Translations under genes and position numbers: made by a program
Virus record (IMG/VR): IMGVR_UViG_3300029288_000059
Location: 225,237-289,236 of that record
DNA length: 64,000 bases
Reading direction: 5' to 3' (one strand)
DNA from: a virus
Taxonomy: Duplodnaviria > Heunggongvirae > Uroviricota > Caudoviricetes
Notes under the pieces: model-generated
The model's database searches: none
What the model was told of the DNA's origin: nothing
The model's input: the letters and a program-made list of their open reading frames with translations, nothing else
Shown here: one piece after another, positions 46,527 to 56,663 of the stretch
How the letters are laid out: each line of letters begins with the position of its first letter
Position numbering within the stretch: the stretch's first letter is position 1

Positions 46527-48044
46527 ATGAAATCAGTACTAAAAAGAAATTACTCATTAAATCCATTAAAGATTGGTGAATTACCTGAATATGAAGACGT
46601 TAAGTATCTATACTTGACATTACTATTACCACTAAATGAAGTAATGGAAATATTTGGAATTAAACGGTCTAAATTAGATGATACCATTAAAAAGTATAAT
46701 TTAAGAAGAACATGGGAACAAAGAGTATATGTCACCCAACGCACCAATATGCAAAAGTATGGTTGTCTTAATCCATCAGGAACTCCTGAATTTAAAGAAC
46801 GAGTAAGACAAACCAGTTTAGAAAAGTATGGGGTTGATAACGTATCCAAATCAAAAGAAGTATTGGATAAAATTAAACAAACCAATTTAGAAAGGTTTGG
46901 GGTAGAATACGTAATGCAATCTAACGTTAATAAATTAAAAGCCAAACAAACATTTAAAGATAAGTATGGAGTCGCATCGCCGTTTCAAATTAAAGAAGTA
47001 CAGAACAAATATAAGGCTCAATGGGTTGAAACGTATGGTTGTTCACATCCCATGAAAAACAAAGAAGTTCAAAATAAATTAAAACAAACGTTCATTGAGA
47101 TATATGGAGTTGATAACCCAAATAAGAATGAAATAATTAAACAAAAAACTCATAATACTCGATGGCCATCTTACTTCAAACAAGTTAAAGATAGATGTAC
47201 TGATGTTGAATTTATGTTTAGTATTGATGATTATAAAGGGGTTAGTTATACTTATCCATTCAAATGCAATAAATGCGAAACTGAATTTACCAATACATTA
47301 GATGATGGAAGAACGCCCCAATGTCCAATTTGTCATCCTAAAGAACCCTATATTGCTAGCAAGCCTCAATTAGAAGTAATGAATTATGTTCAATCTTTAA
47401 TTCCTAATGTAGAAATTATTAAAGATACGAGAAAAGTAATCAGCCCATTAGAGTTAGATATTTACATACCAAGTATGAATATCGCTATTGAGTTTTGTGG
47501 TTTATTTTGGCACAGTAATAGAAATCTTCCTTATAATTACCATTATGAAAAGTATAAAATTTGTAAAGATATGGGTATTAGATTAATTACTTTATTTGAA
47601 GACGAATGGACTTATAATCAAGAAGTAGTTAAACATAAATTAAAAGAAGTTTTAAATTTATTACCTATCGTTGACGTATCTAATTGTACTATCATTAAAG
47701 ATATACTTGTTAATTCGTTCCTACAACGTCATTCATTTAATTCAAGTACATATACTAGTAATATAAGTATCCTACTGTATGGTGAAATAATAGGGGTTAT
47801 GTGGATAGATAACGGATACGTCTATTATTGTTCGAATTATAATATTATTGGATATGAAAAATTATATCATCAATTTAAGGGACATAATATAATAGTAGAC
47901 AATAGATGGGATATAGTACCGTCTAATAGTAAATTGCTATGTGAAGAAATTACGTTCGATTATACGAATTGTAATATAAGAACCTACATAGAATGTGAAT
48001 ATAGAATTTATAATTGTGGTATTCAAATCAGAAGTCTTGTTTAG
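46527..48044 (+). CDS. Hef-like homing endonuclease with N-terminal KYGV repeats and a Vsr-like PD-(D/E)xK core.
   Basis: Repeats such as QTSLEKYGVDNVSKSKEVLDKIKQTNLERFGVEY are present. The core reads PLELDIYIPSMNIAIEFCGLFWHS. It is a paralog of the 54849..56663 product. Confidence 0.6.
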   Translation: MKSVLKRNYSLNPLKIGELPEYEDVKYLYLTLLLPLNEVMEIFGIKRSKLDDTIKKYNLRRTWEQRVYVTQRTNMQKYGCLNPSGTPEFKERVRQTSLEKYGVDNVSKSKEVLDKIKQTNLERFGVEYVMQSNVNKLKAKQTFKDKYGVASPFQIKEVQNKYKAQWVETYGCSHPMKNKEVQNKLKQTFIEIYGVDNPNKNEIIKQKTHNTRWPSYFKQVKDRCTDVEFMFSIDDYKGVSYTYPFKCNKCETEFTNTLDDGRTPQCPICHPKEPYIASKPQLEVMNYVQSLIPNVEIIKDTRKVISPLELDIYIPSMNIAIEFCGLFWHSNRNLPYNYHYEKYKICKDMGIRLITLFEDEWTYNQEVVKHKLKEVLNLLPIVDVSNCTIIKDILVNSFLQRHSFNSSTYTSNISILLYGEIIGVMWIDNGYVYYCSNYNIIGYEKLYHQFKGHNIIVDNRWDIVPSNSKLLCEEITFDYTNCNIRTYIECEYRIYNCGIQIRSLV

Positions 48045-48081
48045 TCCAAATTCCTTGTAAATATACAGGGGAGGACATAAC

Positions 48082-48714
48082 ATGAATATAATTGATATAA
48101 CAGTTCCAGTTCAAACTGGAATGACTAATTGGCCGAATGTAATTGAACCCGAACTAACCATGATAAGTAAAATATCAAACGGTAGTTCTTGTAATTGTTC
48201 ATATCTATCTACGTTAGTACATAGTGGTACGCACATCGATGCCCCATTACATTGTATTGATAATAAATCATCTATAGACCAATTAGATTTAAATACATTA
48301 ATAGGTGAGGTATGGGTAGCGGATATTGGTGATGTACCAATGATTACCAAACAAGTATTAATAGATTCTAAACTCCCATCTAACGTTGAACGTATCTTAT
48401 TTAAAACCAATAATTCTAGTCTATGGAGTAATCCAAAACATGAGTTTAATAAATCATTTGTTGCCTTAACAAAAGATGCATCATCATACATAGTAGAACT
48501 GGGTATTAAATTGGTTGGAATAGATTATCTATCGATTCAATCGTATTATGATAGTAGCGGTATCCCTCATGAAATATTACTAGGGGCTAATGTCGTTATA
48601 TTAGAATGCATCAATCTACATGGAATAAAACAAGGATGGTACAAATTAATCTGTTTACCATTGCGGTTAGTTAATAGTGATGGAGCCCCAGCTAGGGCAA
48701 TATTGAGTTGGTGA
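48082..48714 (+). CDS. Cyclase-family protein (kynurenine formamidase-like).
   Basis: It contains the cyclase signature HSGTHIDAPLH. The RBS is GGGGAGGACATAACATG. Confidence 0.65.
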   Translation: MNIIDITVPVQTGMTNWPNVIEPELTMISKISNGSSCNCSYLSTLVHSGTHIDAPLHCIDNKSSIDQLDLNTLIGEVWVADIGDVPMITKQVLIDSKLPSNVERILFKTNNSSLWSNPKHEFNKSFVALTKDASSYIVELGIKLVGIDYLSIQSYYDSSGIPHEILLGANVVILECINLHGIKQGWYKLICLPLRLVNSDGAPARAILSW

Positions 48715-48716
48715 AG

Positions 48717-49004
48717 TTACAAAGTGAATGATGCTATCTGTTCACCAATATAATCCCAATCATCGTCCGTTAAATACTCATCGTTAATATTATTTGATAA
48801 TTCATTATAGGCAGCTGTAATCATGCCATTTCGTAAGTAGGTTATTAATGTATCTAACTTTTTTAACTCTATTGATATTTTTGAATCCGTTAAATTACTT
48901 TCATTTAAACGTGATAATATATAACAAACAACTCGTTCACCAAAACGAATTTTTCTTAATTCATTACTCATCTTTGTTTCGCGTGATACAATTTCATCTG
49001 TCAT
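48717..49004 (-). CDS. Hypothetical small protein.
   Basis: ORF of 95 aa. Confidence 0.4.
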   Translation of the reverse strand: MTDEIVSRETKMSNELRKIRFGERVVCYILSRLNESNLTDSKISIELKKLDTLITYLRNGMITAAYNELSNNINDEYLTDDDWDYIGEQIASFTL

Positions 49005-49005
49005 A

Positions 49006-49764
49006 TTAAAGTTCCGTAAATGTTAAACAAATAAGTGGATTACTTAATTGTGATATTTGTCCTGCTTGTGATACATCATTTTTAAATTGGACTCCAAAAA
49101 CAGTTCCTTGTCCAAAACTATTAGTACCAGTAACAATAGAAAAATTACTCGAATTAACAGGATATGAATATGTGGCGGGGTATGCGGTAGTACCAGTAAA
49201 CGTTGTATCCATCGGGATATTAAACTTTATTGTTTCTGTACTTCCACTATAAGTATGATTATAAAATCCTAATTCAATATATATAGCTCCTGCTGTTGGT
49301 CGATTAGTAAAAGTAGCACCACTAAAGATTATATTAGCAGTTGTTAATGCACAAGTATATGGTATAATACTTGGATAAACAGCAGAACTACTAAATCCTG
49401 AATAACTTCCACTCGGTGATGTACCCGGAAATGCATATAAAAATCCGGGTGTAAAAGCGGCTGATGCCTGTGAATGTACCATTATATTAAAACTTCGTTT
49501 AGTTGAAATTGTTGTCCAACCAGTATCATAATCAGTAGAACTATTCTTTATTAATACCTGTCCTGTTGTGCCACCAATCGGGACACCAACACCCGTATCA
49601 CCTTTACTAGCAGTATATGGCAAACTATTCCAATAAGTAATGCCATCACCCACCTTCATCTTATTAGTATTAGTTTCTACTCCTGCTTCACCCTTAGCCA
49701 ATAATGGATTAGCAGCAGTCCATTCTGTTGATGTACCATTACGTAATTGTATCTGTTGTGCCAT
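49006..49764 (-). CDS. Tail fiber protein with the conserved fiber N-terminus.
   Basis: IQLRNGTSTEWTAANPLLAKGEAGVETNTNKMKVGDGITYWNSLPY, followed by KGDTGVGVPIGGTTGQVLIKNSSTDYDTGW, is the classic prophage tail-fiber N-terminal motif. Confidence 0.6.
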   Translation of the reverse strand: MAQQIQLRNGTSTEWTAANPLLAKGEAGVETNTNKMKVGDGITYWNSLPYTASKGDTGVGVPIGGTTGQVLIKNSSTDYDTGWTTISTKRSFNIMVHSQASAAFTPGFLYAFPGTSPSGSYSGFSSSAVYPSIIPYTCALTTANIIFSGATFTNRPTAGAIYIELGFYNHTYSGSTETIKFNIPMDTTFTGTTAYPATYSYPVNSSNFSIVTGTNSFGQGTVFGVQFKNDVSQAGQISQLSNPLICLTFTEL

Positions 49765-50027
49765 TATGGAGTACCCCCATTAATACTAGTTGTTCCACCA
49801 TATACAGATACAGGAGTACCACCATCAATATTTTCAATAACAAGATTTGTTATCCATTCACCATTTACTTTTTGATATACTTTTGCGTCACTCGCCTTTA
49901 GTATAAACAAATCCCCATCATTACCTATAATTGATGTCGGTAGAATAGTTGATGTAATTATAGATGGCCCTTTTTTACCAATCTGAAATATATGGGACAA
50001 CGTACTTTTTATATTATATTTTTCCAT
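49764..50027 (-). CDS. Hypothetical small structural protein.
   Basis: A TAATG overlap links it to the fiber gene. Confidence 0.4.
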   Translation of the reverse strand: MEKYNIKSTLSHIFQIGKKGPSIITSTILPTSIIGNDGDLFILKASDAKVYQKVNGEWITNLVIENIDGGTPVSVYGGTTSINGGTP

Positions 50028-50086
50028 AACTAGTCCTATTTTAAAAATATATTTATACTTTAGGATTAAGTTACAGAATACTCAAT

Positions 50087-50117
50087 AAAAAAGGGTGGAA
50101 TTTAACCACCCTTTTTA
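50087..50117. terminator. Bidirectional terminator (stem AAAAAGGGTGG with its reverse complement CCACCCTTTTT, loop AATTTAA).
   Basis: It lies directly downstream of the sheath gene. Confidence 0.65.
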
Positions 50118-50120
50118 TTA

Positions 50121-53100
50121 TTAACTATTTGTCGTACTAGTAGTTAAACGCATTGGTATATAAATGTAATTAATCGATATACCTGGTGAGATTGCTAAGT
50201 CAATCCAAAGTTCATTCTTTTGGATTCGAGCCGAAGTATTATTAGTTGTATCTACCTGTACAACATAATCATATATGGCTTCTTTTTGAATTAAATCAAC
50301 CATAAATGAATCAATAGCGGCTTTAACATTATCGCGAGTACGTTTGTTATTAATTTCGAAGTAGTATGGTTCAACAATCTTTTCCAATCTACGTCTAATA
50401 TAACAAACCAATCGCCCAACGTTTTCTCTACTTAACGCTGAAGTCGAAGTAGATAACGACTTATCACCAAATATAACAATACCACTATCAGGAGAAGTTA
50501 TAATTGGATTAATACTTAAATCATACAATGTATCTTGTAAACCCGAACGTAATGCAACAGCTTTATATTCACCTTCGTCTGTCAAATAACCAACACTCGA
50601 TGCATTACTAACAATACCACGTCTAACACCTGCTGCACTTTTCCATGGATATGAAACAGAATCAGAATAGGCAATAGTACGTAATTTCATTGTAGATGGA
50701 GGAATCATTACATTATTACCACTGGTATCAGTCCCTAAACCCCAAAGATAACACATAGATGAATAATCATTGCGTGTAACACGCCCTACTTCACCATTTG
50801 AACTAGCTTCATAATAGTTATTTGCCCATTTAGTAATGGCAGTTGCGTCAGGTTTTAATCTACATGGTGTTTCAGTAATAGCAAATGATTGTTGTTTTCT
50901 ATCAATCTGTAATTCTACTAATTCATCAAACAGTTCTACATAACCAGGTGCAGCAAGTAAATCCATTTGATAGTATAATGAACGTATATCTTCATTATTA
51001 GTAATAACAGCGGACATAGCTTTTACTACCATTGCACGTTGTGCTTTACGATTCATATAAGCAGAACCATCTTCTGCATTACCACTTGCGTTAATCCATC
51101 TTGAAACAACGGGATTATTAGCCGTACCTGGATATGCAAATGTAGCAGAACTACCAACAGTAAAAGTAGAAGTTGTTGGTGTGAAATAATTACTATTATA
51201 TTTTTTAACATTCTGCGTAGAATAACGAGTATTGAACAATAATGTACCACTTGCATAAACACGTGGGTCAGGAGCATCAGGGTCAACATAATTCGAAATA
51301 ATTAAATCATCTGCTTTTGTTGAAAATGCAGTATGTGTTGAATTTGTATAGCTAGGACCTGAGTTAGAACGTGCATCGGCAAACACAATACCAAAAGGTG
51401 AAGTTTGGTCTGTCTTATTAATTGATTCCCAACTTGTAGACGAAGTAGAATAACGATATAACGCTGGATAGTTTTCTAAATCATCAGTATCAATCCATAA
51501 ATCACCATTTACTAGTGGTGTTCCATCCGATTGAGTTGTTGGTATGCTACTAGTTAATTGAACACCTACTGGGTCAATATTAGTATTATTGTTCTTTAAT
51601 GATTTCCATTCATTACCGTCATTAACCATTATATCTACTAAGTAGTCTGTGTTATACCATAATGTATCATTAACTGGTGGATTAACTGGGGCACTAATTG
51701 AATAAGTAGTATCCAATATTGTCCAATTCGAATACTCACCCGCTGAAATACCCAAACTTGATAATGGGGTTCCTGCTACGTTACTAAATCTAATAGCAGT
51801 ACCATCAGCTCGTTGGAACTGTATAGCCCCATTAGATTGTGCAACTACCAATCCACTAATATTAGCATCCTCAATATCATTAATAACACTATTAAGTGAT
51901 GTACCAGTAAAGGGAACATTCGTAGTAGTTACCACACCATTGACGGCAACTGTGATACCAATAGTATTACCAATCGACACTGTTGGGTTGGTTGTAGTGC
52001 CAGTAACCGTGAATGCACCATTAGTAGAATGTTTCAATATATACAAGTTCGCAATAGGTGAAGCAGAACCATCATACTGTACGAACAAACTATCTAATGA
52101 TAATGCAGTACCGTAATTAATTTCTGCTTCTATTGCACCTTTATATAAAGGAGTTGTTAATATTTTCCATTGTGATGCTTCAGTTGAATATTGTTTAACA
52201 ACATAATTTACACCAGAATTAACATCGGTTGTTTTTAACCATATTGAACCAACGGTTGTGCCAACTGGAATATTATAATGTTCTGCACAAAATAATTGAA
52301 CCCCACTAGTAGTTCCTTCTGTTAATCCCAACGAAGTTAATGCAGTACCACTAACATCAGCTAATACAATATTACCACCATCAGGATTAGTAATCTTTAA
52401 CGCCCCACCTGAATTAGATGCTACTATATTAAGAATACTTGCAGTATTAATATCAGTAACTGCAGATGCTACGTTAGTACCAGTTGACAATGTAACTGCT
52501 ATACCATTAATACTAATTACTGAACCACTACTATATGTGGCGGATGCCGTACCAGTAATAACAGTAGGTTTTGCGTCTGACCATTCATTACTACCAATTA
52601 AGTACCATGAACCACTTATTTTTTCATATAATTTTAATACGTTACTAACAACAACTAATGCAACATTACTATTAGAACCAAAACTTGCATTAGGGACATT
52701 AGATGTTAAATCTGATGTCGTTGGTATAACAACTGTTGCTTCGTCCCATGCCAGACCAGGAGTTGAATTACCATTAGCTCTAAAGATACCATAACTTGTA
52801 TTTGTTTCATCAAACCAATATGTACCGTTTGAAACGTTAGAACTTGGTTCAGTTGCTGATGCTTTTAATTGTTTAAGGTCAATATCACCACGAATAACAT
52901 AAGCAGTTGATGCTAAACCTAAATATGAATGTAATGCATGTAATCCATACTCATTTAATTCATCACCTTGTTTAATGGTTGAATTTTCTGTTTGGAATAT
53001 AGCAGTACCAAACTTTGTAATTGAATCCTTTTGTCCTGATACAACCATTAAGGTGTTTGAATTAGCCTTTGTTGTACCTTCAGCTACCGTACCATCGGAC

Positions 53101-53210
53101 AATAACTTATCTTGTTCGGTACATAATACAATTAAAGGAATAGTAGATGAACCACCTTCCGTTGTTGTAGTTTCGTCTGTTACCGTAATTTTTACATTAG
53201 GTGCGCTCAT
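50121..53210 (-). CDS. Tail sheath protein, gp18 family.
   Basis: Two regions match T4 gp18: the C-terminal ...ISPGISINYIYIPMRL (T4 has QPARSINYITLNFV), and GIVIFGDKSLS...ENVGRLVCYIRRRLE (T4 has GYVLYGDKTAT...FDRINVRRLFNML). It is 1029 aa. Confidence 0.8.
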   Translation of the reverse strand: MSAPNVKITVTDETTTTEGGSSTIPLIVLCTEQDKLLSDGTVAEGTTKANSNTLMVVSGQKDSITKFGTAIFQTENSTIKQGDELNEYGLHALHSYLGLASTAYVIRGDIDLKQLKASATEPSSNVSNGTYWFDETNTSYGIFRANGNSTPGLAWDEATVVIPTTSDLTSNVPNASFGSNSNVALVVVSNVLKLYEKISGSWYLIGSNEWSDAKPTVITGTASATYSSGSVISINGIAVTLSTGTNVASAVTDINTASILNIVASNSGGALKITNPDGGNIVLADVSGTALTSLGLTEGTTSGVQLFCAEHYNIPVGTTVGSIWLKTTDVNSGVNYVVKQYSTEASQWKILTTPLYKGAIEAEINYGTALSLDSLFVQYDGSASPIANLYILKHSTNGAFTVTGTTTNPTVSIGNTIGITVAVNGVVTTTNVPFTGTSLNSVINDIEDANISGLVVAQSNGAIQFQRADGTAIRFSNVAGTPLSSLGISAGEYSNWTILDTTYSISAPVNPPVNDTLWYNTDYLVDIMVNDGNEWKSLKNNNTNIDPVGVQLTSSIPTTQSDGTPLVNGDLWIDTDDLENYPALYRYSTSSTSWESINKTDQTSPFGIVFADARSNSGPSYTNSTHTAFSTKADDLIISNYVDPDAPDPRVYASGTLLFNTRYSTQNVKKYNSNYFTPTTSTFTVGSSATFAYPGTANNPVVSRWINASGNAEDGSAYMNRKAQRAMVVKAMSAVITNNEDIRSLYYQMDLLAAPGYVELFDELVELQIDRKQQSFAITETPCRLKPDATAITKWANNYYEASSNGEVGRVTRNDYSSMCYLWGLGTDTSGNNVMIPPSTMKLRTIAYSDSVSYPWKSAAGVRRGIVSNASSVGYLTDEGEYKAVALRSGLQDTLYDLSINPIITSPDSGIVIFGDKSLSTSTSALSRENVGRLVCYIRRRLEKIVEPYYFEINNKRTRDNVKAAIDSFMVDLIQKEAIYDYVVQVDTTNNTSARIQKNELWIDLAISPGISINYIYIPMRLTTSTTNS

Positions 53211-53250
53211 TATTAAACTCCTATTTAAAATATCTTAATACGTTATAGGA

Positions 53251-53258
53251 TATTTATA
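53251..53258 (-). promoter_or_regulatory. T4-type late promoter TATAAATA, about 40 nt upstream of the sheath gene.
   Basis: The reverse complement of tatttata gives TATAAATA. Confidence 0.5.
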
Positions 53259-53333
53259 GATTTAGTTTAATAATGAGGTTCAAATCAGTATTTTTATAAA
53301 TATAACAAATGTTTTTCTTTTGGAGTTTATATC

Positions 53334-53831
53334 ATGTCTAATAATAATTTTGTTAAATTACTTGAATCAAATTTGGAAAAATCCGAAATTGTATTAGCAG
53401 TTCAAAACATTGCAGATGAAATACAAAAGATGATTAAAAAATTAGGTGAAATTAAACTAGAAAACATCTCACCATTATCAGATAGAATTAAAGCGGTATA
53501 TGGTGTTAAGAGTGCCGAACAATTTACATCTTCTATATCAACTAATCTTGCTCAAGCCATCGAACAGTTATCATCAGTACGTGAAGAGATTAATACTAAA
53601 TCATTAGTATTATCGGGTGACGTTGCCGAATCAGATATGGAATCAGATTTAACTGAGCCAAGAGAAGATGAACATACAGATACTATACAACCAGAAGATA
53701 GAATTAGAAAAGAATCATTAGCCTATATATTAGATGGTAAAAAATACAAACGTTTATTTGAAACTGTTGATGAGATGAATCATTTTATTCTAAAGAACAA
53801 AATCACTAAATTTGTTGTAATAAAGGATTAA
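53334..53831 (+). CDS. Hypothetical acidic protein.
   Basis: ORF of 165 aa. Confidence 0.45.
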   Translation: MSNNNFVKLLESNLEKSEIVLAVQNIADEIQKMIKKLGEIKLENISPLSDRIKAVYGVKSAEQFTSSISTNLAQAIEQLSSVREEINTKSLVLSGDVAESDMESDLTEPREDEHTDTIQPEDRIRKESLAYILDGKKYKRLFETVDEMNHFILKNKITKFVVIKD

Positions 53832-53835
53832 TTTA

Positions 53836-54162
53836 ATGAATCTAGATTCCTTATTCGAAGATATTGATAATACTGTATCGCCAGAAATACAAATTATGTT
53901 GACGGATTATTTTATGATGTCGATGGAAAACGGAATGTCTACTATTCCATTAGATTCGGTTATAGAAGAAGTTAAGAAGAATACTAATATTGATATTAGA
54001 CCATCCGACTTAATCAATATACTATCTCATATACCAACAGTTAGTGATGTTAATAGTGAAGAAGTTACTTTATCCGACCAACGTCAAGATGATAACCCAA
54101 TAGCTAATAGTAAAGATAAAGTAACTGATATGGCTAAACAAAGAGCTAAGAAAATTGGTTGA
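53836..54162 (+). CDS. Hypothetical protein.
   Basis: ORF of 108 aa, coupled to the upstream gene. Confidence 0.45.
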   Translation: MNLDSLFEDIDNTVSPEIQIMLTDYFMMSMENGMSTIPLDSVIEEVKKNTNIDIRPSDLINILSHIPTVSDVNSEEVTLSDQRQDDNPIANSKDKVTDMAKQRAKKIG

Positions 54163-54303
54163 TATTTAACTTGAATAATAAGTAACGAACTTAAATTCAC
54201 CATTATCTTTCATTTCTCTAGACTTACCCGTTGAATGCTCTCCTTTACTAATTGTGTTAATTAACACGTGAATACTGGATAATAAGGGTTCGTCGTATAT
54301 AGC

Positions 54304-54786
54304 TCAATATACCGTTTCACGATTACCACTCCTATGAAATTCATACCACGCATTGGCTAATCTTGGTAATTTATTATTACCTAACAATAATAATTCGTAA
54401 GCAAATTTAATTACATTATATTCATCACTACTATTATATGAACCCTTAAATAATACGTCATGTTCGAATATATTATTCTGATATCTATGTAATAGGTAAT
54501 GTGCGATTCCTACTGCTATTGAAAACGACTTATATTCAATAGATTTATTTGAATTAATAGTTAATACCCAATTAGTATAATCATTTACTAACCGCAAACA
54601 TAAGTCATTACATGGTTCTAATTCTAATTTAATATTCAATATATCAACTAGTTTATATAAGTCAAGAATCCCATTAGTAAAACAATGTTCCGTATGTGCT
54701 AAATTAATAACATCAGTGGGACATGATAAACTCATATCATTATTTAGATTACTTGGTCGTTTCATACCCACTCTAATAGTTGCCAT
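54304..54786 (-). CDS. Hypothetical protein, 160 aa.
   Basis: No clear motif. A degenerate ImmA-like HxxxH (VGIAHYLLH) is present but lacks the glutamate. Confidence 0.4.
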   Translation of the reverse strand: MATIRVGMKRPSNLNNDMSLSCPTDVINLAHTEHCFTNGILDLYKLVDILNIKLELEPCNDLCLRLVNDYTNWVLTINSNKSIEYKSFSIAVGIAHYLLHRYQNNIFEHDVLFKGSYNSSDEYNVIKFAYELLLLGNNKLPRLANAWYEFHRSGNRETVY

Positions 54787-54848
54787 AATTTAATCCTTAC
54801 TAACCGGGTTAACGAGTTAACCCAGTATAATTAAATTAAACCAATATG

Positions 54849-56663
54849 TCAATGAGTAGCATATATGTACTTACTCTGTCCACAATCATAAATTTTAACA
54901 AAACTTTCATCTAGTTGTTTCCCTATTGAATACTGACGTGGATATCGATTATTAAGATTAGTCCAGTAAAACCCAAGACTACAACTCACATACTCAAACC
55001 CTAATTTGTTATATAAATCACCCGTACCCCATCTATTATCACAGTAACTCACTATTTCTTTTTCATTTGTTTGTTTTAGGAAATGTTTGAATAATTTACT
55101 AGCACCACCTATTACTGATGTACTACTACAAAATCTTAACAATTCAAAATACTTATATCTCTTACCAAATGACATAACTGCTACTAACTTATCATCAAAC
55201 ATCAATCCATAACAATATTGGCTAGATACATACCCTTGAATGTGATTCGTATTAATGAATGACTTTTCTTGCTCAACATCAACCCCAACAATCGTACATT
55301 TACGTGCATATACTTTATTTGATTTTTGTAATATATGTAATAGTCTTTGTTTAACAATATTCTGTTTATAAATCCATTCATCTTCAAATATAGTAATAAG
55401 TCTAATTCCTTTCTCTTTACATAGGTTATGTTTGTTTATGTGATAATTCTTATCCTTTTGTGGGATACTATGCCAATATAATCCACAATATTCTATTGCT
55501 ATATTCATACTAGGGATATAAATGTCTAACTCTAACGGTTTAATTTGTATCCTATCACTTTGAATGACTTCTATATTAACCAGTAGGGATTGGACGTAAT
55601 CATATACTTCGTTCTCGCCGTGACTTCTCATTAATGGATAACAATTATAACAACGTGGTAATTTTCCATCTTCTAAACTGGACATAAACTCATTACCGCA
55701 TTTCTTACATTTAAATGGATGTAAATTATAAACACCAGTATATTCATCTATTGTGAATAAGAAATCAACATTACTACAACGATTCTTTACTTGTTCAAAT
55801 AGTAATGGTTCACTTGTAATACGAACTTTGTTTTTGACTTCATCATTCTGCATTGGATGAATCGTACCATACTTTTCCATATTGGTTAAATTAGACTTGG
55901 ATTTTATACCTTCATTCTGTAATAGACATTCAGTCCCATACTTTTCTAAATTCGTATGTATCTTTTTATTATGTATTGCTTCATTTTGCATTGGATACTC
56001 ACAACCATACTTTACCATATTAGTACGTTTGATTTGTTCCTTGATATCTTCCCGTTGTAAGGAATATTCAACTCCATACTTTTCTATATTGGTTTGTTTA
56101 ATTCGGTCTTTAATTTTATCATTTTGTAATGGCGTATTCGTACCATATTTCGCATTACAGGTACGTTCTACCTTTTCCCTTATAATTGTAGCCTTACTAG
56201 GGTTATCCACGCCATACAACGTTATAAGCGTTTGTTTGCCCTTATCCCTTACTACTTGAGAGCTTAGTGATGATTCAACCCCATAATGTAATAAAGTAGT
56301 TTGTTTCTTTTTCTCTTTAATTGAAATAGATTGACTTGGATTATCCACTCCATATCGTTCTATATTAGTTTGTTTGATTTGTTCCTTAACTTCATCTGAT
56401 TTAAATGGATTATCTACACCATACTTTTTGATATTAGTTAGACGAGTGGATTCTAATACTTGCTCATTAGTTCTCTTTAAGCTATATGCCTTTATATAAC
56501 CACGTACCGTTCCCGTATCCCTTTTATTGAATATAATGCACATTTCCTGTACTGATAATAGTACATCAATGTAAAGATATTTAACATCTTCATATGTAGG
56601 CCATTCTCCATATTTTAATGGATATAAATCATAATCACGACTTAATTTATTTTTATCACACAT
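54849..56663 (-). CDS. Hef-like homing endonuclease, 604 aa, with KYGV repeats and a Vsr-like core.
   Basis: At least nine (K/R)..T..EKYGV.NP.Q repeats are present. The core reads PLELDIYIPSMNIAIEYCGLYWHS. Confidence 0.6.
   Translation of the reverse strand: MCDKNKLSRDYDLYPLKYGEWPTYEDVKYLYIDVLLSVQEMCIIFNKRDTGTVRGYIKAYSLKRTNEQVLESTRLTNIKKYGVDNPFKSDEVKEQIKQTNIERYGVDNPSQSISIKEKKKQTTLLHYGVESSLSSQVVRDKGKQTLITLYGVDNPSKATIIREKVERTCNAKYGTNTPLQNDKIKDRIKQTNIEKYGVEYSLQREDIKEQIKRTNMVKYGCEYPMQNEAIHNKKIHTNLEKYGTECLLQNEGIKSKSNLTNMEKYGTIHPMQNDEVKNKVRITSEPLLFEQVKNRCSNVDFLFTIDEYTGVYNLHPFKCKKCGNEFMSSLEDGKLPRCYNCYPLMRSHGENEVYDYVQSLLVNIEVIQSDRIQIKPLELDIYIPSMNIAIEYCGLYWHSIPQKDKNYHINKHNLCKEKGIRLITIFEDEWIYKQNIVKQRLLHILQKSNKVYARKCTIVGVDVEQEKSFINTNHIQGYVSSQYCYGLMFDDKLVAVMSFGKRYKYFELLRFCSSTSVIGGASKLFKHFLKQTNEKEIVSYCDNRWGTGDLYNKLGFEYVSCSLGFYWTNLNNRYPRQYSIGKQLDESFVKIYDCGQSKYIYATH

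Follow-up and report, generated by a model that had tools for sequence, protein, structure and literature searches.

Free-standing homing endonucleases of the T4 type can carry other genes along, since genes lying between the endonuclease gene and the cut site or flanking homology are co-converted in homing repair. A gene for such an enzyme on the strand opposite to its neighbours, at the junction of the tail sheath and tail tube genes, is an arrangement already described in the Dickeya phage LIMEstone1, and endonuclease genes mark boundaries of genetic exchange (PMC10448857). Members of the cyclase family PF04199, a separate group of enzymes, share the motif HxGTHxDxPxH and distal histidine and glutamate metal ligands (PMC5341072, PMC4243253); besides the kynurenine formamidases (KynBs), the family contains isatin hydrolases and metal-dependent esterases (PMC5341072). 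Genes of both kinds stand side by side in a stretch of 64,000 nucleotides from an uncultured virus of the Caudoviricetes (IMG/VR record IMGVR_UViG_3300029288_000059, positions 225,237 to 289,236), hereafter the window, where a Hef-like homing endonuclease (46527-48044, plus strand) is followed by a cyclase-family enzyme of KynB fold (48082-48714, plus strand) at the sheath/tube junction. The endonuclease adds a member to a known family, at a site already known for it, and the cyclase adds a phage-borne one to a known fold. Overall, the locus is probably best explained as an insertion at this junction that includes the Hef-like endonuclease and, as its possible cargo, an old, cellular-derived and presumably active amidohydrolase.

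An insertion between the tail sheath and tail tube genes

A first-pass annotation, made from the sequence alone, had described a plus-strand pair that separates the sheath and fibre genes from the tube gene. Both open reading frames (ORFs), of 505 and 210 aa, are listed at exactly its coordinates, within a run of minus-strand structural genes, and the flanking tube, sheath and fibre genes on the minus strand are as it described them. The separation itself stands, but it is not due to the pair alone: it extends over 3.74 kb and includes five genes, namely those of p87, an Mtd_N protein and p95 on the minus strand, and those of the endonuclease and the cyclase on the plus strand. The conserved gene on the low side of the insertion codes for a gp19-like tail tube protein (45781-46380, minus strand; PF06841, E-value 1.9e-07; phrog_4542, 6e-48) and that on the other flank for a tail sheath protein of 1029 aa (50121-53210, minus strand; PF17482, 2.5e-12; phrog_10581, 1.1e-214). 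Both are real genes and not chance ORFs, given their family matches (Pfam Cyclase, E-value 5.5e-19; phrog_3339, 1e-58) and, for the cyclase, the confidence of the AlphaFold2 (AF2) model (predicted local distance difference test, pLDDT, of 96) and a ratio of non-synonymous to synonymous substitution rates (dN/dS) of 0.04.

The window belongs to a metagenomic contig of 272 kb (ENA, ERZ27247363:k141_2513218), and the same gene arrangement is found in that contig, in an independent 21-kb Logan assembly and in a relative that is 86% identical in nucleotide sequence (L035; Logan SRR23702512, from a sequencing run different from that of the window). No nucleotide-level relative was found among 50,697 deposited phage records by megablast with an 8.3-kb query. 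At the protein level, the sheath is 35-41% identical to the sheaths of the jumbo phages Atu_ph07, PA5oct, Vibrio phage 2.275.O and the 121Q group; the window also encodes a topoisomerase II, a thymidine kinase, a prohead protease, a gp23-like capsid protein and a terminase, a predicted gene content typical of a large T4-like or jumbo myovirus. Scans of IMG/VR and JGI metagenomes with the tube protein returned only relatives at 42% identity or less, and a search of 5.8 billion proteins returned a single relative at 53% and none closer apart from the phage itself.

Comparison of gene order shows that sheath and tube adjoin in most relatives. In the 30 relative loci where both genes are visible, the gap between them is 67-390 bp, compared with 3740 bp and five genes in the window, and none of these loci has an endonuclease at the junction. 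Many of them come from one marine clade, but at least six distinct lineages are represented, including Vibrio phage 2.275.O, the 121Q group and L037, the last being the closest relative without the 3.74-kb block (SRR28147566; tube 53% and sheath 56% identical). The sheath gene immediately followed by the tube gene is the ancestral state in this phage group, and the 3.74 kb were inserted in the present lineage. An island present at this position in every relative would have told against its mobility, and this is not what the loci show.

The junction is occupied in some other phages too. It holds four unrelated genes in Atu_ph07, including a Clp-protease-like one, and a Hef-like endonuclease gene in both PA5oct and LIMEstone1, on the same strand as the flanking genes in the former and on the opposite strand in the latter. 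The recurrence of Hef-like genes at the sheath/tube junction of unrelated myoviruses suggests a lineage of endonucleases specialised for this site. The mobility of the family is directly visible between two Asteriusviruses as a presence/absence polymorphism, UE-S1 having a Hef-like homologue after its neck gene (L125:6704-8698) where 121Q has a 77-bp spacer (L126:3903-3980).

The endonuclease and the cyclase-family enzyme

The product of 46527-48044 had been called a Hef/Vsr-like homing endonuclease, a call now backed by profile, annotation and fold. It matches PF24308 (DUF7487; E-value 1.7e-26) and phrog_3339, a 'homing endonuclease' family (1e-58), and tblastn retrieves genes annotated as Hef, 'Hef-like' or F-LimVIII in Campylobacter, Dickeya, Klebsiella and Escherichia phages. 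The original Hef of T-even phages was reportedly tested experimentally, by Sandegren in 2005, and the window endonuclease is tied to it via annotation only. Alignment with 39 homologues (40 sequences in all) delineates helical DUF7487 repeats (aa ~60-225), a zinc ribbon (CNKC...CPIC; aa ~246-270), a Vsr/I-Bth0305I-like nuclease core (aa ~298-363) and a degenerate C-terminal GNAT-like domain (aa ~380-505; 47664-48041, plus strand). The core keeps the conserved residues E309, D311, E322, G325, W328, H329, Y338, H339, K342 and E358. No PDB chain matches the protein in sequence, and its match to PF18741, a restriction-endonuclease-like family, is weak (E-value 0.027). The AF2 model has a pLDDT of 79.6, with low values for residues 465-490; in Foldseek comparisons its nuclease core superposes on the catalytic domain of I-Bth0305I (3r3p), with a template modelling (TM) score of 0.77 of the target and a probability of 1.00, and also on Vsr (1cw0/1vsr), the E-values of these matches being 5e-3 to 4e-2, and its tail weakly resembles GNAT-fold proteins. 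The nuclease core is thus intact. As to the C-terminal domain, seven near-invariant positions are changed (R386N, H403S, Q405N, R433Y, G441I, Y472C and D496N), which makes the protein the sole outlier among the 40, and all seven are kept in a second Hef-like endonuclease encoded in the window (54849-56663, minus strand; 604 aa, 36% identical to the first copy). By this comparison, the copy at the junction may be decaying or specialised.

This second gene, whose product keeps every conserved residue, lies between an M78-peptidase-like gene (54304-54786) and the gp23-like major capsid gene (56774-57952), so that the two paralogues bracket the sheath block (48045-54848). An endonuclease homologue in an unrelated phage contig directly follows a prohead protease gene, and the T4-type portal gene of that contig holds an intein (Portal_T4 plus Intein_splicing; L132:1376-4699).

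The second gene of the pair had been assigned to the cyclase family, with a kynurenine-formamidase-like fold, on the strength of its HSGTHIDAPLH motif, and Pfam, PDB and AF2/Foldseek comparisons bear this out. The PF04199 profile is matched over 140 of its 142 positions at 69.2 bits, well over the gathering cut-off of 23.1 bits (E-value 5.5e-19), and the motif H47-S-G-T-H51-I-D53-A-P-L-H57 is accompanied by the distal H163 and E175. When the sequence is aligned with the PDB KynBs, W20, H50, H54, D56, H60, S149, H161 and E173 of BaKynB correspond to W17, H47, H51, D53, H57, S151, H163 and E175, all eight being kept. According to the KynB structure paper (PMC4243253), and in the numbering of the window protein, H47, H51, D53, H163 and E175 bind two metal ions, H57 is the general base/acid, and W17 and S151 contact the substrate. 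The catalytic His/Asp/Glu site, whose loss would have overturned the hydrolase call, is thus fully retained, and none of the 30 columns that are invariant in the subfamily is changed. In the PDB, its closest relatives are the Bacillus 'metal-dependent hydrolases' 1r61 and 8hmo together with three validated kynurenine formamidases (E-values from 1e-27 to 1e-15). The AF2 model, with a pLDDT of 96.2, superposes in Foldseek on 8hmo, 1r61 and the KynB structures 4cog, 4co9 and 4cob with TM scores of 0.84-0.89; isatin hydrolases, a cyclase-phosphotriesterase and a cyclase-like esterase score lower.

Compared with L035, the cyclase gene has a dN/dS of 0.042 (the fibre-like gene, 0.048) and is under strong purifying selection. 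With a full active site, a confidently predicted fold and purifying selection, the enzyme is very probably active. Its best cellular identity is only about 50%, and its guanine-plus-cytosine (GC) content of 33.0% matches the 31.8% of the window, from which an acquisition long ago from a cellular source is inferred.

The first-pass annotation had also regarded the cyclase as an unusual phage gene, and searches of PHROG, phage records, IMG/VR and BFVD agree. No PHROG family matches it, and among the viral structures of BFVD Foldseek finds no match to its fold (best hit: E-value 0.097, TM 0.24). In tblastn, two of the 50,697 phage records match, and neither is retained as a precedent: the kynB of 'Microcystis phage MaAM05' is surrounded by rplA, pgi, ilvD and queG, which look bacterial, and the other match, in an unverified 4-kb scaffold of a human-faecal 'Bacteriophage sp.', has no phage genes near it. 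The MaAM05 record (MW495066.1 39546-52193, L123) has kdgK as well, and it looks like a piece of bacterial chromosome and not like phage DNA. When the subfamily alignment was used for a motif-based search of 2.9 million IMG/VR contigs, two distant matches (31-32% identity) came up. Phage head genes adjoin only one of them; the other is situated beyond two serine recombinases, in what is probably host flank, and is discarded. A comparable scan of cellular genomes yields more than 579 cyclase matches.

Substrate and possible mobility of the cyclase

From fold and active site we infer that the KynB-fold enzyme works as a metal-dependent amidohydrolase and takes a small amide, formamide or ester as its substrate; N-formylkynurenine is a possible but not an established one. 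The tryptophan/kynurenine role proposed in the first-pass annotation is doubtful. If the enzyme were a true KynB, it would hydrolyse N-formylkynurenine and boost host tryptophan catabolism or de novo NAD supply in infection; this would agree with the retention of eight of eight catalytic and substrate residues, including the aromatic W17 and S151, with a TM score of 0.89 to three KynB structures and with the arylformamidase label of many database homologues. It is nevertheless unlikely: on TIGR03035, the equivalog model of KynB arylformamidases (EC 3.5.1.9), the protein reaches 127.4 bits against a cut-off of 223.05, its ten nearest homologues reach 137-167 bits and are all below that cut-off as well, and identity to validated KynBs is 24-29%. 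Moreover, the KynB-type residues, W17 and S151 included, are invariant across the whole 1r61-like subfamily and are therefore non-discriminating. No kynA/kynU-like neighbour recurs among the top neighbour clusters of 84 cellular loci, and no pathway partner is present in the window.

The gene neighbourhoods of cellular homologues provide a different lead. A conserved cassette, in which a methyl- or glycosyltransferase gene is followed by those of a PF04199 Cyclase, of CTP_transf_3 (a cytidylyltransferase of the CMP-sugar-synthetase type) and of 2-Hacid_dh (a 2-hydroxyacid dehydrogenase), occurs in three of the four top-scoring metagenomic homologue contigs examined, the fourth being without it, and in two of the three best genome matches; the five best-scoring cassette homologues are 47-51% identical to the phage cyclase. 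Clustering of neighbours in 79 loci (80 loci of species-representative genomes plus the four contigs, minus five without a called cyclase ORF) places a cytidylyltransferase gene 3' of the cyclase in 10-12 of them. The Chloroflexota, the most numerous carriers, differ, with a large conserved protein upstream, an enolase-superfamily racemase and a short-chain dehydrogenase. Examples of the cassette, from bacteria and one Methanosarcinales archaeon, are L036:9131-15314, L038:6747-13286, L039:7048-11778 and L043, among others; it is sometimes accompanied by an MptE-like protein, an epimerase or an FkbM methyltransferase, and its cyclases carry the arylformamidase label yet score far under the KynB cut-off.

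That the phage enzyme is not a kynurenine formamidase at all, and acts instead on a sugar or nucleotide-sugar intermediate by which the phage alters a surface glycan of its host, is accordingly conceivable, though quite improbable. The repeated occurrence of its nearest cellular homologues (47-51%) in the cassette would fit, as would their scores of 137-167 bits, under the 223-bit KynB cut-off, and the fact that, of the four residues by which cassette-type and Chloroflexota-type members can be told apart, the phage protein shares three with the former. Conversely, the neighbour-joining tree of the cyclases is star-like and does not resolve the placement of the phage protein, mean identity to cassette-type and to other members does not differ significantly (p = 0.24), no cytidylyltransferase, dehydrogenase or glycosyltransferase partner turned up in the window, and every residue that contacts the substrate in KynB is present. 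Neither for the Cyclase-cytidylyltransferase cassette nor for the 8hmo protein did literature searches bring up a publication. The link to glycan synthesis is therefore offered as a lead and not as a result. The remaining proposal of the first-pass annotation, hydrolysis of cyclic nucleotides or other defence signals, finds no support and is very improbable. The family member 8f9x is a phosphotriesterase, so the fold could allow phosphoester chemistry, but the phage cyclase is 18-19% identical to 8f9x as against 27-32% to KynB-like structures, and the characterised members of PF04199 are amidohydrolases, esterases and phosphotriesterases; the idea seems to have arisen from the family name, 'cyclase' here being unrelated to nucleotide cyclases. 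PADLOC gave no match for five proteins, the cyclase included.

How the gene reached the junction is a separate question. The first-pass annotation had suggested that it hitch-hiked with the endonuclease. Lying between the endonuclease and the next conserved gene, the cyclase would be copied along whenever the sheath/tube junction of a related phage without the endonuclease is cut, and recombination repair of the cut junction would make it hitch-hiking cargo, the two genes probably being transcribed together from the tube-endonuclease intergenic region. Only 37 nt, free of plus-strand terminator-like sites, separate the two genes, which lie on one strand and are the only plus-strand genes of the inserted block; furthermore, the 37-nt spacer is 91% identical in the 86% relative L035, above the coding DNA on either side. 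On this basis, joint travel with the endonuclease can be entertained only tentatively. A somewhat doubtful alternative is that the cyclase is an independent moron, acquired separately and moving independently of the endonuclease, next to which it stands only since the junction tolerates insertions. It draws on the unrelated insertions at this junction elsewhere (four genes in Atu_ph07; the endonuclease alone in PA5oct and LIMEstone1), on the three further genes inserted here on the other strand, on endonuclease homologues that occur elsewhere without a cyclase, and on the strong ribosome-binding site that the cyclase has of its own; it has to face the strand, the close spacing and the lack of an intervening terminator-like site just mentioned, and the co-conversion expected for a gene between an endonuclease gene and its cut site or flanking homology (concept in PMC10448857).

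A number of observations weigh against the account preferred here, that of an insertion carrying the Hef-like endonuclease with the amidohydrolase as cargo. Metagenome scans and the search of 5.8 billion proteins revealed no genome in which one of the two genes, endonuclease or cyclase, occurs without the other. In L035, the sole cyclase-carrying relative, the endonuclease gene is represented as well, by its 3' end, and none of the five inserted genes occurs in the next relative (53-56% identity in amino acids); from these data, joint and separate acquisition are inseparable. The insertion at this junction also includes three unrelated genes on the other strand, those of p87, the Mtd_N protein and p95, and it may simply be that the junction tolerates insertions. 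Three close endonuclease homologues (34-38% identity) have no cyclase nearby and stand beside DNA polymerase or prohead protease genes, and essentially none of the 1484 endonuclease homologues can carry a cyclase, because the latter is near-absent from viral collections. No mosaic or high-identity tract shared with another phage was found, nor any intermediates. In view of the degenerate C-terminal domain, the predicted homing activity of the endonuclease may have been lost. At codon 36 of the L035 cyclase gene, two changes turn TCT into an in-frame TAA (L035:179-181), which could be an assembly error or a very recent inactivation, the remainder of the gene being under strong purifying selection. 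Finally, the Pfam matches of the window, which covers 64 kb of the 272-kb contig, include no kynA/kynU-like or NAD-pathway genes.

Catalogued viral proteins are essentially devoid of the KynB/cyclase fold. In this phage it is nevertheless intact and under strong purifying selection, so that the phage would benefit from an activity not yet linked to infection. A bolder reading, that this is the first genuine selected phage KynB-fold gene, spread among jumbo phages by a junction-targeting Hef-like endonuclease and with a role new for the fold, is a long shot; the same holds for the role imagined, which would be to deformylate or deacylate a host surface-glycan precursor, or to destroy a small amide metabolite on which the host depends or which it turns against the phage. 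Should the cyclase indeed travel with the endonuclease, the locus would show clearly how a selfish nuclease can spread a metabolic gene from phage to phage. Beyond phages, thousands of 'arylformamidase' genes of this subfamily score well under the KynB threshold, many of them in glycan-synthesis cassettes, and the label may be wrong.

Surroundings of the insertion and comparison with described systems

Signals for the expression of the inserted genes were read from the sequence. In the divergent intergenic region between tube and endonuclease (46381-46526), the TTGATT-N16-TATAAT motif that had been put forward as the promoter of the endonuclease lies at 46476-46503 (plus strand) and not at 46468-46495. 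There is no evidence that it is a promoter: 32 sigma-70-like sites were found as against 40.4 expected from shuffles, and such sites are thus rarer than in shuffled sequence, not enriched. On the minus strand of the same region, AAGGAG (~46389-46394) and AATAAATA (~46410-46417) lie upstream of the tube gene, which may have a late-type promoter of its own now that the sheath is separated from it. The 37-nt spacer between endonuclease and cyclase (48045-48081, plus strand) contains a strong Shine-Dalgarno sequence for the latter (GGGGAGGA). The cyclase stop and the converging stop of p95 are 2 nt apart with no terminator, and the two transcripts would consequently overlap.

Beyond the cyclase, the inserted block comprises p95 (48717-49004; 95 aa), a fibre-like protein of 252 aa with an N-terminal Mtd_N domain (49006-49764; PF18454, E-value 1.7e-13, and many tail-fibre PHROGs) and p87 (49764-50027; 87 aa), all on the minus strand; p95 and p87 match no Pfam or PHROG family. 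In L035, the gene of the 95-aa protein has a 1-nt deletion in a T run (~L035:750). Between sheath and p87, a hairpin with a T run is followed by TATAAATA (50050-50111, minus strand). The GC-rich hairpin, GGGTGG-N7-CCACCC with its T run after the sheath stop (50087-50111), was read directly and was not reported by the terminator scan. The T4-late-type TATAAATA stands at 50050-50057 ahead of p87 and also upstream of the sheath, at 53251-53258. It occurs 11 times in the window, compared with roughly 20 occurrences estimated from base composition, and only its positions upstream of sheath and p87 are noteworthy, in a suggestive way.

Further short plus-strand insertions are present nearby (44693-44968 and 53334-54162). 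Between 44000 and 54500 no Rfam element was matched, the window contains no tRNA genes, and a search for transposon-like boundaries gave only short repeats at chance level. An HNH endonuclease gene (38647-39225, minus strand; PF01844, PF14279) is the third mobile-element-type nuclease gene of the window. Among the products of the ORFs in 1-42520 and 57973-63935, and not localised further, are one with a cREC_REC 'cyclic-phosphate processing receiver' domain (7e-31), four with LRR_4 leucine-rich repeats, one Band_7 protein and one pyrimidine-dimer glycosylase.

The locus can finally be set against known systems. It shares with the 'HEG islands' (homing endonuclease gene islands; Barth, Dunham and Seed 2023, PMC10448857) a pair of paralogous endonucleases that bracket an essential sheath block, with an accessory gene beside one of them, but the high-identity tract shared with another phage that defines such islands is not seen here. 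As regards the cyclase, the Bacillus proteins 1r61/3krv and 8hmo are its best PDB matches in both sequence and fold (E-value ~1e-27, 31-33% identity), and 1r61 nests within its subfamily in the tree; these are cellular proteins from which no function can be transferred. The KynBs (4co9, 4cog and 4cob; PMC4243253) share its fold (TM 0.89) and all eight of its active-site residues, whereas the window protein is phage-encoded, 24-29% identical to them, below the TIGR03035 cut-off and without kynA/kynU context in the window.

As for the endonuclease, its predicted core superposes on nucleases of the I-Bth0305I/Vsr type (PD-(D/E)xK-related), but the protein has additional DUF7487 repeats, a zinc ribbon and a GNAT-like tail. 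EST35_0196 of the Pseudomonas jumbo phage PA5oct belongs to the same Hef-like family (30.6% identity over 196 aa) and is likewise encoded between the sheath gene, whose product is 38% identical, and that of a tube-like structural protein; it differs in being on the same strand as these and in having no cargo gene. The closest parallel in layout is F-LimVIII of LIMEstone1 (PMC3296691), a protein of the same family (31% identity over 65% of the query) whose gene has the same site and orientation, sheath (minus), endonuclease (plus) and tube (minus), divergent from the tube. LIMEstone1 is a 152-kb phage of another family, the Ackermannviridae, and the window endonuclease differs by its degenerate C-terminal domain; in LIMEstone1 nothing but the endonuclease gene and a terminator lies between sheath and tube, without any cargo, whereas the window has the cyclase.

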